Shown here: in pieces, positions 11,523 through 19,164 of the stretch
Layout of the letters: each line of letters opens with the position of its first letter
How positions within the stretch are numbered: the first letter of the stretch is position 1
Source of the DNA: a virus
Strand: one strand, 5' to 3'
Length of the DNA: 19,164 nucleotides
IMG/VR virus record: IMGVR_UViG_3300031269_000117
Coordinates: 1-19,164 of that record
Position numbers and translations under genes: made by a program
Notes under the pieces: generated by a model
Databases searched by the model: none
The model's input: only the letters and a program-made list of their open reading frames with translations
Told to the model about the DNA's origin: nothing

Positions 11523-11626
11523 CTAAGGGTATGTATGTCTTACACAAAAATGATATATTTGGATGAGGTATTCTTCGGACTGGAGTTTTATTCAGGTCTA
11601 GCAAAGTGTGTAGTCTAGTTATGCTT

Positions 11627-11659
11627 AAAAAAAAGGCCCCTAAATTTAATTAAGGGCCT
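11627..11659 (-). terminator. Intrinsic terminator for the minus-strand gene.
   Basis: A8 (11627-11634) is followed by a hairpin with arms aggccc and gggcct. On the minus strand this reads as a hairpin followed by T8. Confidence 0.6.
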
Positions 11660-11662
11660 AGA

Positions 11663-11692
11663 TTGATCTTAAAGTGCAACCAAGAAGATCAA
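11663..11692 (+). terminator. Possible terminator hairpin for the late (+) operon.
   Basis: 8-bp stem (ttgatctt / aagatcaa) with a 14-nt loop, followed by T-rich sequence but no clean T-run. Confidence 0.3.
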
Positions 11693-11728
11693 AACTTATT
11701 TAATTTTATTATATAATTTTTAAGAAAA

Positions 11729-11953
11729 TTAATCCTCTTCATCTGCTGGGTAGAAATGGCCCAGATCGAAAGAAAAAAATATAGGTGTTTGATTTATTTT
11801 AAGTTCAATGCTGTTTTCAATAGTTTGACCTTCACCAATAGCTCTTTCCACCTCTTCTCCCCAGGCATAAAGGGTGCCAGGGTAAAATTTACTTCCAAGC
11901 TTTTTTTCAAGCTGTGTTTTTAAAGTTTTATAACCTTTTTTGTTTAACTGCAT
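11729..11953 (-). CDS. Hypothetical protein (74 aa); the only minus-strand gene and a possible regulator.
   Basis: Strong RBS on the minus strand (ctaaggagaaaaaATG). It has its own terminator and is divergent from the early + operon. No HTH was recognised. Confidence 0.6.
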   Translation of the reverse strand: MQLNKKGYKTLKTQLEKKLGSKFYPGTLYAWGEEVERAIGEGQTIENSIELKINQTPIFFSFDLGHFYPADEED

Positions 11954-12118
11954 TTTTTCTCCTTAGTTACACATATACAGTAGCACATTTTTTAAGCAAA
12001 AACAATAGCCTAGTATCAATACAATACACTATTGAAAACATCTTATATCGATACAAAAAGTAAGAAATCTTACAATAGTACTTGATCAGGTACAGCCAAG
12101 TGAGTCTACAAAATAAGC

Positions 12119-12314
12119 ATCCTAATTGAGATCTAATCCTAATTAAAAATATCTGAGTATTTATTGGTGTGCTCAGAAAAATCAGATTGACTGCTAATCC
12201 TTAAGCACCCCTAATACTAACTTAAGCCCTCAAGTCTGGGTTTTTAACTACAGATTCCTTGCCTTTGGAACTGCCGCGCTAACGCTTGGACTGCTCATCA
12301 GCAAGCTGATCGAG
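12119..12314. promoter_or_regulatory. Cluster of short direct repeats and a palindrome in the divergent intergenic region; candidate operators, iterons or origin.
   Basis: ATCCTAATT occurs at 12119 and 12136, and CTTAAGC at 12200 and 12221. The motif TTG(G)A(A)CTGC occurs at 12187, 12265 and 12286. A palindrome ATCAGCaaGCTGAT lies at 12297-12310 and is extendable to 12294-12314. The 12240-12320 stretch is a GC-rich island in AT-rich surroundings. Confidence 0.4.
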
Positions 12315-12472
12315 CCTGTAAAATTTAGGCTATTAAAACTTTTAACTTCATTTAATTAAAGTGTTTAACTTATAAACAATGTCTAAAAGTTATACGATAT
12401 TTTAAACTCACATTGTCCTCAATACCAATACAGATGGCACCGATTGTGCATACTTATTTTTGAGGTGCAGAT

Positions 12473-12679
12473 ATGACAAAAAATAAAATAATTAAAAGAC
12501 GTTCAAACAATCAATCAAAGTATATAATAAGATGTAATGATGGTAGAACTTTGAAATCTAGATCAGATTCAGACCTTAAAAAAGACATTGGTTCTCTTGA
12601 TGTAGGCTTTACTGTTTTAAAAAATGTAGAGGGTACTACTTTATATGTTTCTGAATTTAAAGACTTGGTGCTTAAATAA
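12473..12679 (+). CDS. Hypothetical basic protein (68 aa); first gene of the rightward early operon.
   Basis: gaggtg RBS 6 nt upstream of the ATG. Confidence 0.5.
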   Translation: MTKNKIIKRRSNNQSKYIIRCNDGRTLKSRSDSDLKKDIGSLDVGFTVLKNVEGTTLYVSEFKDLVLK

Positions 12680-12897: not shown

Positions 12898-13644
12898 ATG
12901 GAATCATCAGCTTCAATTCAAGAAATTTATAAGTCATTAATCAAAGCACAAGGGGATTTCTCAGCAATTCCATTTGATGCTAAGAATCCTCACTTCGGAA
13001 ACAAGTATGTAAGTCTCACAGGGACTCAAGAACATGTCAGACCTATACTTTCTAAGCATGGCTTAGGTCTAATTCAATCGGTTGAAAGTCTAGATTCTAG
13101 ATACTATGTCCTGTCTAGATTGATACATGAGTCTGGCGAGTGGATTCAATCCTCTATAGAGTTGATGGTAGATAAGAAAAATATGCAAGGGCTTGGATCA
13201 GCCACAACCTACGCGAAGAGATATGCGGCACAAGCAATACTAGGTCTATCGGGTGATGAGGATGATGATGGCAATGCATCATCTAAGGACTACAGTCACA
13301 AAGCCCCTCCACAAACTCCGGCTTATAAACCTTTTGTCGGTAACTCTAATGACTTCAAACTTCCATTTGGTACAGCCAAAGGATCTAGTATTATAGACAT
13401 GGACATTAAAACTTTGTTTAAAATAAAATCTTGGATTAATGGTGAGGTTCAAAAAAATCCAAAAGCAAAAGCTAACCTTATGTACATCGACACCTTAGAT
13501 CATGTTGAAAACATAATTCATTTAAAAACTCCCTCAAATAACGATGATCAATTTTCTGAATTTACGCCACCCCCAGAAGAAGAAAATCAAGAGACTGTTC
13601 AAGATCAAATAAATAGATTGCAAGGTCAGTATGGGAAAAAGTGA
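12898..13644 (+). CDS. erf: ERF-family single-strand annealing recombinase with a C-terminal extension.
   Basis: aaggag RBS. The motifs match the P22 Erf family: KAQGDF..I..DAKNPHFGNKYVSL...VRPILSKHGLGLIQ...HESGEW...GSATTYAKRYAAQAILGLSGDEDDDGN. The C-terminal segment KLPFGTAKGSSIIDM...KSWI resembles the PFGKYKG...L.WL (DUF3820-like) module. Confidence 0.8.
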   Translation: MESSASIQEIYKSLIKAQGDFSAIPFDAKNPHFGNKYVSLTGTQEHVRPILSKHGLGLIQSVESLDSRYYVLSRLIHESGEWIQSSIELMVDKKNMQGLGSATTYAKRYAAQAILGLSGDEDDDGNASSKDYSHKAPPQTPAYKPFVGNSNDFKLPFGTAKGSSIIDMDIKTLFKIKSWINGEVQKNPKAKANLMYIDTLDHVENIIHLKTPSNNDDQFSEFTPPPEEENQETVQDQINRLQGQYGKK

Positions 13645-13677: not shown

Positions 13678-13803
13678 ATGGATGTTTTTATAAGCTACCT
13701 AGTTTTTATATTAGAGATCTTATTTACAATGTCGGTGTTTTTATTTATGGGGACTGCCATTTACTATATGGATAAGTTTTCACATCAGGAGAAAAAAAAA
13801 TGA
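13678..13803 (+). CDS. Small hydrophobic membrane protein of 41 aa (MDVFISYLVFILEILFTMSVFLFMGTAIYYMDKFSHQEKKK).
   Basis: Below the track cutoff. A G8 SD-like tract (13664-13671) lies upstream. Its stop overlaps the next ATG (ATGA). An alternative in-frame ATG is at 13672. Confidence 0.5.
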   Translation: MDVFISYLVFILEILFTMSVFLFMGTAIYYMDKFSHQEKKK

Positions 13804-14066
13804 AAGTACTAGTTGAGGAAAACAGTAAAGAAGGTTTAGAGGGTTTACTCGGAAAAAGAGTTTTATTAGTGAGCGCTGGTTATTTCTACGAGGGAAAACT
13901 TGTAGGTGTTAACTCAACTTGTGTAAAGCTTGAAGATCCTAGTATCGTTTATGATACCGGTGATTGGGAGAGTAAAACCTACTCAGACATTCAAAAACTA
14001 AACACTGATGTTTGGTATGTTAACACTGGTTTAATTGAGTCATTCGGGCTTAGTAAAAATGATTAA
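13800..14066 (+). CDS. Hypothetical protein (88 aa) with Sm/LSm-like motifs.
   Basis: LLGKRVLLVSAGYFYEGKLVGVNSTCVKLED resembles the Sm1 motif (hGKxVxVxLxxGxxxxGxLxxxDxxxNLxLxD). VWYVNTGLIESF resembles Sm2 (hhIRGxxIxxh). This was recognised by eye only. Confidence 0.35.
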   Translation: MKVLVEENSKEGLEGLLGKRVLLVSAGYFYEGKLVGVNSTCVKLEDPSIVYDTGDWESKTYSDIQKLNTDVWYVNTGLIESFGLSKND

Positions 14067-14098
14067 TATTAAGAGTGAAAGGTTAAGATCTACTAGAC

Positions 14099-14282
14099 GG
14101 TCATGGTCAGGGTCAATGCCAAGGTCATGGTCATGGTCAGGGTTATGGTCATGGTCATGGTCAGGGTCAATGCCAAGGTTATGGTCAGGGTCAGGGTCAA
14201 TGCCAAGGTTAAGGTCAGGGTCATGGCCAAGGTCAAACTCAAGGTCCGGGTCAATGCCAAGGTCAAGGTCAATGTCAGGGTA
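14099..14282. repeat. Imperfect tandem hexanucleotide array, about 30 in-phase units, consensus GGTCA(R/T), with a higher-order 18-mer.
   Basis: The units were parsed one by one from 14099 (ggtcat ggtcag ggtcaa tgccaa ...) to 14278 with no phase break. The 18-mer ggtcag-ggtcaa-tgccaa starts at 14105, 14159 and 14189, with a ggtccg variant at 14243, giving spacings of 54, 30 and 54 bp. Confidence 0.95.
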
Positions 14283-14308
14283 GAATGATTTAAATTTTAG
14301 TTTAAAAA

Positions 14309-14521
14309 ATGGGGGTTTTTTTGACTTTAAAAGAGTATATGACAGTTGCTGTTTGGATAAAGCTTATAGATAAAAAATACAGCTCAAGTGATACTTATTT
14401 TCATAGAGCTTATAAATTTGTAAATGAAAATAAAGATAAAGATATTTTAAGTCTTTCTTTAAAGCAGCATGATTGGGTTGATCAAATAATTTACAAAATT
14501 GAAGGATTAGAAAATGAATAA
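14309..14521 (+). CDS. Hypothetical protein (70 aa).
   Basis: The ORF fills the interval and its stop overlaps the next small ORF. There is no clear RBS, and an in-frame ATG at 14339 is an alternative start. Confidence 0.4.
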   Translation: MGVFLTLKEYMTVAVWIKLIDKKYSSSDTYFHRAYKFVNENKDKDILSLSLKQHDWVDQIIYKIEGLENE

Positions 14522-14672
14522 TAATTTACTTTATAAAATAACAGTTGATTCAAAAGATTACTATGTAATAGCTTTTACAGCTGAGCTTGCAGTTGACATG
14601 CTTATTGTTTCAAAAAAAATACCAACAAGCCAAAGGTTTATTGTTACTTGTCTTGGAGGGTTCATTAAATGA
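14514..14672 (+). CDS. Hypothetical protein of 52 aa (MNNNLLYKITVDSKDYYVIAFTAELAVDMLIVSKKIPTSQRFIVTCLGGFIK).
   Basis: Below the track cutoff. It overlaps the upstream stop and ends in an ATGA overlap with the ASCH gene, so it bridges an otherwise empty 147-nt gap. Confidence 0.45.
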   Translation: MNNNLLYKITVDSKDYYVIAFTAELAVDMLIVSKKIPTSQRFIVTCLGGFIK

Positions 14673-14968
14673 TTCATGAATTAAAAATTGTTCCAAAATA
14701 TTATGAAAGAATTTTAGAGGGCGTTAAAAACTTTGAAGTTAGATATAATGACAGAGGTTTTCAGCCCGGTGATACAGTTGTCTTAAGAGAGTACGTTCCG
14801 GAGCCTTTTAATTCATGGGATCTTGAAATACAAATTGGATATACTGACAGGGAGCCTTTAGAATTTACAATTGGTTATGTGTATTCACTGCCTAAAGATA
14901 TGGTAGTTTTCGCACTACTTCCCCCCCCAAAAAAAAAACCTAAACAAAAGTCTAAAAAACTACTTTAA
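14669..14968 (+). CDS. ASCH-fold protein of the DUF3850 type (99 aa) with a Pro/Lys-rich tail.
   Basis: MIHELKIVPKYYERILEGVKNFEVRYNDRGFQPGDTVVLREY matches the DUF3850 N-terminal signature (HELKxxPxYFxxxxxGxKxFExRxNDRxFxxGDxxxLxE). Confidence 0.7.
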   Translation: MIHELKIVPKYYERILEGVKNFEVRYNDRGFQPGDTVVLREYVPEPFNSWDLEIQIGYTDREPLEFTIGYVYSLPKDMVVFALLPPPKKKPKQKSKKLL

Positions 14969-15000: not shown

Positions 15001-16515
15001 ATGGCAAAGGGCTGGAGAAAAACTCATTTAGATTGGGACAAGGTTAAAGAACTATTTAACATGCAAAACTCTCAAGAAGAGATTGCAGCGTTCTATGGCA
15101 TAAGCATCAAGAGCCTTGAGAGGTACTGTCGTGAGGACTTAGGTCATGAACTTGGGGTGTTTTCTGCACAAAAAAGACTAACTGGAAAGGTTAGGGCTAG
15201 AAAAAACCTATTTAGGCTAGCCGAGTCTAACCACCCCGGTGCAGTCACAGCCTCAATATACTTACACAAAGTCCTATGTCCAACAGAGAACCCGAACAAA
15301 AAGCAAGAACCTGTAGTTGAGAAAGATTCTCATTTAGAGGAAGTTAGAACTTTCTCAGAGTTTTGTGCAAATGCCGGTTATCCAATTCCTTACTATAAGC
15401 AAAAAGAAATGAGAGAGTTTGTTTTTGATGTGACAGAGCCTAGGGAACTAATTGGCGCTAGAGGCGTTGGAAAAACTGATTATACAACCATAGCCGGTGT
15501 GGCGTATGACATATACTTAAACGGCACCAACACAACAAACCTAATCATGACCGACTCACAAAAAAGGAACAAAGCTTTAGTTGGAGAGATTGCCCACTTC
15601 TTAAAAGCCAATAGCGTTAGGCTATCAAAAGATACTAGCGAGGTTTTAAGAATTGAGGGCCTTGTTGGAAAGGATCACTCCGTAGAGGCTATGACCATAG
15701 GCTCATCAATGAGAGGTAGGCATCCTAAAAGAATCATAATGGATGATCCTGTAACAGAAAAAGACACGAGTGCCGCTAAAAGATCCCAGGCAAAAAAAGC
15801 GTATGAGGAAGCTTATAAGCTAACTTCAAATATATGCTTGATAGGACAGTACGTTCACCCTCAAGATCTATACAGTGAGCTAGAAGACAATCTCAGAGTT
15901 ATGAAAGTTCCACATGGAACTATACCAGAGCTTGATGCTGACCTTGAGGCCATGGAAGCGGCCGGTGTTTCTAGAAGATCAATAGACATGTCTTATAGGC
16001 TTTTTATACCAAAAGAAGGCGAGACTATATTTTCAGGGCTTAATAAAATTCCAGACATGCCACCGGGTCAAACAGTTGCTTTTATCGATCCGTCTGATGG
16101 GGGTGACTACACTGCTATCAGTGTTCTTAGATCTTATATGGATGGAATATGTGTTTATGGAAAAGTATGGAAAAGAGCTTGGTATCATTGCATTGATGAC
16201 ATTGAAAATGTTGTTAAAGAAAAATCAGTTTCGAGGGTTTGCTTTGAAACTAATGCGACAGGGAGTCAACCTATTGAGCAGTTAAGACAGGTCCTTGATG
16301 GGGTGGGGGTAGTTGGAAAGCACTCGACTTCAAACAAGCACTCAACAATTGTTGCAACAGGTTCTTATGCTCACATGATACACTTGTCTAATGAGTCTGA
16401 CAGTGAGTACATTAGACAAGTGGAAAACTACGAAATGAATGCAGATTATGATGATGCGCCCGACTCACTTGCAAGGTGTCTTGAGTGGATAGGTTTAATT
16501 AAGGGGGGGAAGTAA
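15001..16515 (+). CDS. terL: Terminase large subunit with an N-terminal HTH extension resembling a small terminase.
   Basis: Walker A is LIGARGVGKTD and Walker B is KRIIMDDPV. Nuclease acidic motifs are AFIDPSDGGDYTA, CFETNATG and DDAPDSLARCL. Residues 1-~95 (DWDKVKELFNMQNSQEEIAAFYGISIKSLERYCRE...RARKNLFRLAESNHPGAVTASIYLHK) look like the HTH N-terminal domain of small terminases. Confidence 0.85.
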   Translation: MAKGWRKTHLDWDKVKELFNMQNSQEEIAAFYGISIKSLERYCREDLGHELGVFSAQKRLTGKVRARKNLFRLAESNHPGAVTASIYLHKVLCPTENPNKKQEPVVEKDSHLEEVRTFSEFCANAGYPIPYYKQKEMREFVFDVTEPRELIGARGVGKTDYTTIAGVAYDIYLNGTNTTNLIMTDSQKRNKALVGEIAHFLKANSVRLSKDTSEVLRIEGLVGKDHSVEAMTIGSSMRGRHPKRIIMDDPVTEKDTSAAKRSQAKKAYEEAYKLTSNICLIGQYVHPQDLYSELEDNLRVMKVPHGTIPELDADLEAMEAAGVSRRSIDMSYRLFIPKEGETIFSGLNKIPDMPPGQTVAFIDPSDGGDYTAISVLRSYMDGICVYGKVWKRAWYHCIDDIENVVKEKSVSRVCFETNATGSQPIEQLRQVLDGVGVVGKHSTSNKHSTIVATGSYAHMIHLSNESDSEYIRQVENYEMNADYDDAPDSLARCLEWIGLIKGGK

Positions 16516-18700: not shown

Positions 18701-19123
18701 ATGCATGATCCAAGTAAAGTTCTTCTAGGAAGTACAGAGCAAAGCTGGAAGGTTTCAAAATCCTACAAGGGCACTATTGAACCCGGAGTTGTTTGCAGTA
18801 GAAACTCAGGCGGTGTTTTGATTGTTGGTCCTGGTAATGACATGGGCGTTTCACTTGGAAAAAACATGGGTGACGCTGGTTACTCAACAAGATGCGAAGC
18901 CGGGCTTGGTGTACCAGTTGCACTAACAGATGGTTTTACTCCTACTCAAGGTGGGGTTGTTCATATCAATGACACTACAGGTTTAGCGAATGAAGCGGGT
19001 GCTGGTAACACAGAAACTCTTGGAGCTTATTCAAGTGGTGTTTTAACCGGCATCAAATACGACGCTAATGGCGCAGAAGTAGAAGTTAGAGTAGCATTAG
19101 TTAAAATGGTGGGTGGGTTGTAA
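18701..19123 (+). CDS. Putative head decoration protein, DUF2190-like (140 aa).
   Basis: Gly-rich, beta-type sequence ending ...TLGAYSSGVL...VEVRVALVKM, reminiscent of DUF2190. It occupies the lambda D-like position between the scaffold and capsid genes. Its 3' end is duplicated at 1-86. Confidence 0.45.
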   Translation: MHDPSKVLLGSTEQSWKVSKSYKGTIEPGVVCSRNSGGVLIVGPGNDMGVSLGKNMGDAGYSTRCEAGLGVPVALTDGFTPTQGGVVHINDTTGLANEAGAGNTETLGAYSSGVLTGIKYDANGAEVEVRVALVKMVGGL

Positions 19124-19164
19124 TGGCTAAAAAAGCCAAAACTAAATCAATCATTAAAAAGGTT
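19038..19164. repeat. Terminal direct repeat, copy 2 (identical to 1-127).
   Basis: Exact 127-nt identity with the start of the window. Confidence 0.95.

Follow-up and report, generated by a model that had tools for sequence, protein, structure and literature searches.

An array of hexanucleotides in a small phage genome is almost certainly the coding body of a real and mostly unannotated small gene, read in a frame in which serine alternates with a second residue (Ser-X), mainly glycine, arginine or tryptophan. The array directly follows a gene for a small protein with a predicted Sm-like fold, and the comparisons presented here make it very probable that the two genes form an obligate module. 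The repeat gene belongs to a phage gene family that is new, widespread, for the most part unannotated, and accompanied by a fixed partner. We propose, more tentatively, that the products of the two genes act together on nucleic acid early in infection; for coding, module and mechanism blended into one explanation, the probability is roughly 0.6.

The array lies in a stretch of 19,164 bases with 36% GC (IMG/VR record IMGVR_UViG_3300031269_000117), which was analysed as a whole and is referred to as the window. Its positions 1-127 are identical to positions 19038-19164, and this terminal direct repeat of 127 bp indicates that the contig is a circular assembly of ~19.04 kb (about 19,037 bp). The window is a tailed-phage genome, and its tail and baseplate genes are listed with the other features in Table 1; about 19,037 bp is very small for a phage that encodes tail-sheath-like, baseplate-hub and tail-fibre proteins. 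Megablast with the entire window gave 0 matches in 50,697 phage records, scans for Rfam families and tRNAs in it were negative, and the small neighbouring ORFs have no PHROGs, Pfam or NCBIfam family. The array sits between an 88-aa ORF, which we refer to as the partner gene, and a 70-aa ORF.

Table 1. Features of the window (positions are counted from the first base of the window).
Feature	Position	Strand	Basis or remark
Tail and baseplate genes	first 11.5 kb		
Erf recombinase	12898-13644		
Partner gene, 88-aa small beta-barrel protein, predicted Sm/LSm-like fold	13800..14066	+	AF2 and Foldseek
Start/stop overlap ATGATTAA	14059..14066	+	read directly from the sequence
Ser-X repeat protein gene, 74 aa	14059..14283	+	ATG 14059, TAG 14281-14283; open frame in all relatives
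Leader MINIKSERLRSTRR	14059-14100	+	N-terminal part of the repeat protein
Hexanucleotide array, 30 units of GGTCAN	14099..14278	+	almost certainly the coding body of the repeat gene
(Ser-X)n body	14101-14280	+	TCA-NGG frame
ATGATTTAA, candidate relic of the start of a second repeat-gene copy	14285..14293	+	short similarity only
70-aa ORF	14309-14521		downstream flank of the array
DUF3850/ASCH protein	14669-14968		
Large terminase	15001-16515		

A preliminary description of this DNA had offered three roles for the array, an iteron-type replication origin, a dipeptide-repeat protein, and a repetitive RNA or binding array; the second of these was right, and the SW/SG/SR-rich ORF at 14059 had already been listed there. 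Its account of the repeat structure also holds. Positions 14099-14278 consist of 30 consecutive hexamers with no phase slip, mostly GGTCAT, GGTCAG and GGTCAA, for which TRF gives scores of 227 at a period of 54 and 184 at a period of 30. When up to 2 mismatches are allowed, the three-unit pattern GGTCANGGTCANGGTCA has 20 matches, all of them in phase at 14099+6k, compared with a chance level of 0.01 obtained from 200 shuffles. The 18-mer GGTCAGGGTCAATGCCAA is present at 14105, 14159 and 14189, with a variant (GGTCCG...) at 14243, exactly as claimed. The GC content of the array is 53%, compared with 36% for the window, and AT-rich DNA lies next to it at 14284-14340. Searched for exactly in IMG/VR, the 18-mer turned up five times, each time as an isolated, unrelated copy outside any array, and these are chance matches. 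A scan for promoters and terminators around the array remained at chance level. The concern that the array could be an artefact of assembly or a chimera is dispelled by an independent ENA assembly (L305), which matches the window with 100% identity along 792 bp, the entire array included; L304 agrees with the window as far as the end of its contig, which falls inside the array.

Four frames run through the array without a stop, reading Ser-X and Val-x on the plus strand and Leu-Thr and Asp-x on the minus strand. The array had been described as open in five of the six frames, which is slightly generous, as the Gly-x frame contains one TAA (14210-14212) and one minus-strand frame is full of stops. 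The frame that matters is identified by comparison with relatives. We collected about 50 loci with a homologue of the 88-aa gene from IMG/VR, JGI and ENA metagenomes and one MAG, and a hexamer array directly follows the homologue in about 40 of the 45 loci with enough downstream DNA, starting within a few dozen bases of its stop codon. The unit itself varies among these loci. TCA-NGG is used by the lineage of the window and by many others, AGC-NGG in L007, L020, L022, L045 and L057, TCG-NGG in L037 and L042, TCT-NGG in L015, L041 and L053, and TCG-NGT in L008, and the sole feature common to all of these unit types is one reading frame, which reads Ser-X.

Codon usage in 38 non-identical arrays gives the same picture. 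Serine is encoded by TCA (468), AGC (235), TCT (79), TCG (67), AGT (15) and TCC (12), and the X residues are Gly (343), Arg (275) and Trp (274). No stop is present in the Ser-X frame in any of the 38 arrays, whereas the other frames are stopped in many arrays and likewise lack conservation among relatives. This comparison refutes the GGT-CAN frame (Gly-Gln/His), in which a weak hint of coding had been seen earlier and in which the variable base occupies the third codon position. It has no start codon and contains the TAA in the window, it is interrupted by stops in 11 of the 38 arrays, and relatives read Gly-Ala, Gly-Arg or Gly-Leu there, leaving it next to no chance of being the coding frame.

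The Ser-X frame is also delimited as expected of a gene. The ATG at 14059 is embedded in the last codons of the partner gene (ATGATTAA), the TAG is located directly after the last hexamer, and the same or an equivalent start/stop overlap (ATGA, TAATG) is found in most relatives, the offset between the repeat-gene start and the partner stop being -7, -4, -1 or +1 to +10. There is no Shine-Dalgarno sequence at the window ATG, and the earlier statement that none of the ORFs has a convincing one is correct for this start, although it passes over the good start that the Ser-X ORF has in overlapping the stop codon of the partner. Because the ATG lies inside the last codons of the partner, the two genes are most likely translationally coupled by termination-reinitiation. 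Pairs that do not overlap have a Shine-Dalgarno sequence before the ATG, such as GGAGG in L056 and GAGGGTGGTGA in L027. We also considered a fusion of partner and tail by programmed frameshifting and rejected it; the relative frame of the two genes varies by locus, being +1 with ATGATTAA and -1 with ATGA, and some loci are non-overlapping with their own Shine-Dalgarno sequence, so that there is no conserved frameshift fusion.

Ahead of the repeat is a leader of 10 to 14 residues, most commonly of the form M-x-S-P-[RK]-S-[FY]-R-N-R, and SP[RK]S[FY]RNR is kept through third-base changes and through codon-box switches of both Ser (AGY/TCA) and Arg (AGA/CGN). Entire leader-plus-array units are tandemly duplicated in 2 to 4 copies (e.g. 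L013, L069, L111). The close relatives L009 and L012/L013 have ...GGTAGAATGATTAA... at the position matching window 14285-14293, and past it they contain a second leader-plus-array gene, with a third in L013. The window sequence ATGATTTAA looks like the beginning (ATGATTAAT...) of the second tandem repeat gene in L009 and L013, and by this short similarity it is probably the stump of a lost second tandem copy.

In relatives whose partner protein is 97-99% identical, the length of the array differs from that in the window by +6, -30, +48, -12 and +6 nt. Whether copy number changes in multiples of 6 or 18 had been raised as a question, and the differences are multiples of 6 and not of 18; the preservation of a single frame by substitutions, likewise raised, is seen for Ser-X through the codon-box switches. 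The array evolves fast via gain and loss of 6-nt units, with the first base of the X codon toggling freely among W, G and R, and with Ser and the overall G/R/W mix maintained by selection. Together, the codon switches, leader, starts, Shine-Dalgarno sequences, unit duplication and 6-nt indels bring coding in the Ser-X frame close to the limit of certainty that sequence comparison offers. The very fast turnover and variable copy number would also suit a functionless, self-expanding microsatellite behind a conserved gene. However, the array persists at one position over partner identities of 57-100% and in association with a second partner family (see below), and its amino-acid composition, leader and open frame are all conserved, which makes a microsatellite of this kind very unlikely.

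The same comparisons bear on the iteron-type origin. Iteron origins of plasmids and phages have conserved direct repeats bound by a cognate initiator, and the array is like them in having direct repeats, here with four copies of the 18-mer spaced by multiples of 6, adjoining AT-rich DNA (14284-14340). Unlike in these origins, its sequence is not conserved and an initiator is absent. In the Ser-X frame the 18-mer GGTCAGGGTCAATGCCAA is the peptide block SGSMPR, and it is absent or rearranged even in phages in which the flanking partner gene is 97-99% identical; in other relatives the unit is wholly different (AGCNGG, TCGNGG, TCTNGG). The ORFs that were scanned with PHROGs, Pfam and NCBIfam include no initiator (rep) gene, and the sole clear reversal of cumulative GC skew in the window is a dip elsewhere, at ~11.7-12.3 kb. 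We therefore regard an origin at the array as exceedingly improbable. The 11600-12500 region is a likelier site than the array for a regulatory switch or origin; it holds the sole minus-strand gene of the window (11729-11953), and a minus-strand terminator-like hairpin is located at 11659-11634.

The repeat protein predicted from the window has a pI of 12.0 and a net charge of +11.5 (S24 R12 W8 G8). Behind its leader come about 30 Ser-X dipeptides, with Trp, Gly or Arg at most X positions, and also Met-Pro-Arg blocks. An AF2 model has a pLDDT of 53 and no secondary structure in the repeat; the 6-nt unit, the indels in multiples of six and the predicted disorder fit a disordered protein derived from a tandem repeat. 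Pfam, PHROG and NCBIfam have no family for this protein.

The partner is more tractable. A word-seeded search found 156 homologues of the 88-aa protein at 57-100% identity, and a full HMM scan with the family gave 433 clusters at 50% identity (E<=1e-3). The AF2 model, built with 25 homologues, has a pLDDT of 80 and predicts a short helix followed by five strands, with an extra helix at 59-66. The N-terminal helix and five bent beta-strands that define the Sm fold are thus present in the predicted structure, and in a Foldseek search of the PDB the top 50 matches are all Sm/LSm proteins (TM 0.6-0.75, best E 3.9e-4). Sm1 and Sm2 motifs were not found in the sequence, which has no match to Pfam LSM or to any Pfam family at E<=1, and there is no PHROG or NCBIfam family for it. 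Without a sequence match to Sm proteins, 'Sm-like' is a statement about the predicted fold only. A profile search against the PDB gave only weak, non-significant matches, to the KOW-like domain of KIN17 and the Tudor domain of 53BP1; in the latter match (E 0.23, not significant) GYFYxGK of the partner has its counterpart in the first Tudor domain. The partner alignment contains an invariant aromatic cluster comprising G27-G32 (AGYFYEG), Y51, Y61 and W72, and a role for the partner as a Tudor-like peptide binder is conceivable. Two homologues, P0125 (218 aa) and P0153 (194 aa), have two complete copies of the Sm-like domain in one polypeptide, which fits an oligomeric assembly and proves nothing. 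No fused partner-repeat protein (Rosetta-stone) is present among the long partner homologues that were inspected.

To define the wider family, IMG/VR was scanned for six consecutive TCANGG or AGCNGG units, with at least 120 matches listed per scan. Many scan matches are plain (SR)n or other simple repeats, and among the matches listed there are at least 88 further mixed SW/SG/SR short ORFs in at least 80 loci. A partner gene lies directly upstream in 53 of these 88 listed mixed S-[GRW] ORFs, either a homologue of the 88-aa gene (23) or a member of a second partner family (30); the locus edge is too close to tell in 17 others, and a partner was not found for the remaining 18, several of which are second or third tandem copies. 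Proteins of the second partner family (loci L066, L079, L086, L094, L121, L126, L136, L150, L249, L293 and L307) are 110-135 aa long with the motifs ...YLIRTVT...WIADTGRF...EVEPFP..., have no Pfam, PHROG or NCBIfam family, and align with the first family over the barrel core with an hhalign probability of 91% (E 1e-6). The repeat genes of this second family have an ATGA overlap with the partner and encode a different leader, MNxAILRTG[FY]D.

The module was found in well over a hundred uncultured phage contigs. The operons that contain it are early ones, with recombination, methylase, helicase and regulator genes; these neighbourhoods are heterogeneous and offer no anchor for a function, and no recurrent neighbour besides the partner emerged from a survey of the neighbouring genes. 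The 118 distinct repeat proteins have a median length of 66 aa (range 27-112) and a median net charge of +10 (+3 to +18), with acidic residues at 1.2%, and their X residues are 39% Gly, 31% Arg and 29% Trp in near-random order. The pattern scans also match the IMG/VR GVMAG contigs L095, L104, L222 and L255, which bear the label of giant-virus MAGs, the last with an SG/SW-rich ORF, and similar arrays may occur outside tailed phages. The only match among 185,579 species genomes is L057 (RXKB01000029.1), a 36.6-kb contig of a Candidatus Dependentiae MAG with the full module of partner and AGC-type array; this contig could represent a prophage or a phage contig that was binned wrongly, and it gives the only clue to a host.

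In the JGI, NCBI, ENA and Logan contigs inspected, no gene is called at the repeat ORF, and as a consequence none of 10 repeat proteins was present in an exact look-up in a collection of 15 billion proteins. A homologue search with the repeat protein also found nothing, probably because of low-complexity filtering combined with the ORFs being uncalled. With tblastn against cultured phages only two genomes were recovered, both from spring-water metagenomes; these two phages are the only GenBank records with the module, and one of them annotates the ORF as a 43-aa hypothetical protein (UOF78858.1). We found no description of such Ser-X repeat proteins in the literature, and this, with the family searches, agrees with the preliminary description, to whose author no phage element of this architecture was known. 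The N-terminus of P0196, L087, and extra ORFs in L069 and L175 are arrays read in the wrong frame, for example as (V-G/V-A)n or (V-M/V-R)n; where callers do call a gene at such arrays, the frame may be the wrong one. A family that is present in well over a hundred viral contigs and yet skipped by gene callers constitutes a blind spot of annotation, and implies that low-complexity small ORFs of this kind are systematically lost.

The codons at the X position are strongly biased. In the 38 arrays Gly is encoded by GGG 321 times compared with 22 for all other Gly codons, and Arg by AGG or CGG 248 times compared with 27 for the other Arg codons. GGG accounts for all eight (8/8) Gly codons of the window array compared with 20% genome-wide, and the window genome prefers GGT and AGA, unlike the array. 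For Arg, each array uses either mainly AGG or mainly CGG (window 14101-14280; L006-L057). Selection at the protein level alone does not predict an NGG bias, and a further constraint, at the level of RNA, DNA or mutation, is therefore possible. Much of the bias is explained by rapid turnover of units in which the first base is free, TGG, GGG, AGG and CGG all being acceptable, and L008, with NGT at X, follows the same logic; a possible RNA or DNA constraint is GG every six bases.

Taken further, the bias could mean that it is the nucleic acid itself that is essential, as an RNA or DNA array with GG every 6 nt that would, for example, be wrapped round a ring-shaped partner for autoregulation, with translation incidental or secondary. 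TRAP, which binds GAG repeats, is a model for an array wrapped on a ring. Such a role would be consistent with NGG in nearly all arrays, with the striking avoidance of synonymous Gly and Arg codons, and with an array that always adjoins a putative RNA-binding gene. It does not account for the four or more unit types that all encode Ser in the frame of the ATG, including the switch between the TCN and AGY boxes, nor for the NGT of L008, the conserved leader peptide, the Shine-Dalgarno sites and the whole-gene duplications. The array RNA folds only weakly better than shuffles (z -2.0), inverted repeats are absent from the array, and there is no Rfam match. We consider an essential nucleic acid very unlikely, and the repetitive RNA or binding array suggested previously is not supported, the Ser-X frame alone being shared by all unit types.

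How the module might work can be sketched by analogy. The repeat product would be an intrinsically disordered polycation (pI 12, charge about +10) in which Arg and Trp would act as 'stickers' and Ser and Gly as 'spacers'. A conserved leader ahead of a hypervariable body suggests a docking peptide, and we propose that the leader docks the repeat protein to the partner, which would probably form a ring; the obligate coupling to a barrel fold that is usually RNA-binding suggests a joint particle made up of the two proteins. The tail would then bind single-stranded nucleic acid multivalently, RNA most likely, and may condense it as RG/RS tails do on eukaryotic Sm and SR proteins, with the module presumably acting early in infection. 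RS, RGG and designed Arg/aromatic peptides are known for multivalent nucleic-acid binding and coacervation. By this analogy, it is possible that the barrel partner and its basic aromatic tails bind or condense nucleic acid, at rather less than even odds. The fuller version, a phage RNP-type module in which a Sm/Tudor-like barrel, probably a ring, and a leader-docked Ser-(Arg/Trp/Gly) tail bind or condense RNA or ssDNA early, is slightly more doubtful again.

The same composition could serve a different end, in which the Ser-X protein would be a membrane-active or toxic Arg/Trp-rich effector, acting in host takeover, as a lysis aid or in exclusion, and the barrel its chaperone or antidote. With about 30% Arg and 29% Trp at X, a charge of +10 and almost no acidic residues (1.2%), the protein resembles Arg/Trp antimicrobial peptides in composition; in an extended chain, its strict Ser alternation would bring every W and R to the same face, and the invariant aromatic patch of the partner (GYFYEG, Y51, Y61, W72), with the weak Tudor-like matches, could fit a peptide-binding barrel. 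However, a signal peptide and a hydrophobic segment are absent, the module is positioned among early and DNA-metabolism genes and not lysis genes, and the Sm-like fold is usually RNA-binding, so an effector, though the main alternative, is unlikely.

If the RNP-type reading is true, the module would be an independently arisen analogue, in bacterial viruses, of RG-tailed Sm or SR proteins, and it would evolve in an unusual way, every second codon having a first base that can toggle freely among W, G and R. The grammar of the repeat is extreme, with Ser at every second residue and the rest in about equal thirds of Gly, Arg and Trp. This Ser-X composition is of the sticker-and-spacer type of designed condensate-forming peptides, here natural and phage-encoded, and the fixed pairing with a predicted Sm-like barrel bears on whether phages use disordered RS/RG-like tails for RNA or DNA handling. 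The NGG-only codons and 6-nt indels also offer a good system for the concerted evolution of coding microsatellites.

Among known systems, the nearest are the RS domains of eukaryotic SR proteins and the RG-rich tails of SmB, SmD1, SmD3 and LSm4. The phage repeat protein is like these in its Ser/Arg/Gly dipeptide repeats, in being disordered and polycationic, and in its tie to a protein with an Sm fold, which is predicted here. It differs in that the phage tail is encoded as a polypeptide of its own, complete with a leader, that Trp occupies one third of the X positions, and that the setting is a bacteriophage. SR proteins have one or two RRMs and a C-terminal RS domain, whereas the phage protein has no RRM or any Pfam domain, and Ser-Arg makes up only about a third of its dipeptides; no homology is implied. 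Bacterial adhesins of the Ser-Asp (Sdr/Clf) and serine-rich repeat kinds form long stalks that are acidic or neutral, secreted, glycosylated and anchored to the wall. The phage protein shares with these adhesins a (Ser-X)n stretch specified by short repeats in the DNA, with TCN and AGY codons both used for serine, but it is 27-112 aa long and basic, lacks a signal peptide or anchor, and has a leader that is basic or of the MNxAILR type.

A predicted LSm-like fold has been described for GoF, MotB.1 and Frd.2 of T4-like phages (PMC12152347). As with these, the partner is a small early phage protein whose LSm-like fold is recognised by structure prediction alone; it has no detectable sequence relation to them, and a repeat-protein partner is not mentioned in the abstract of that paper (PMC12152347). 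Borg elements are reported to have tandem repeats inside ORFs that evolve fast and create intrinsically disordered regions (PMC9879509), and the phage array is similar in that nucleotide tandem repeats within ORFs of a mobile element give rise to a disordered protein. Instead of recent expansions that arose independently, the phage gene is a conserved family that has kept a fixed partner and a fixed amino-acid grammar in many lineages.
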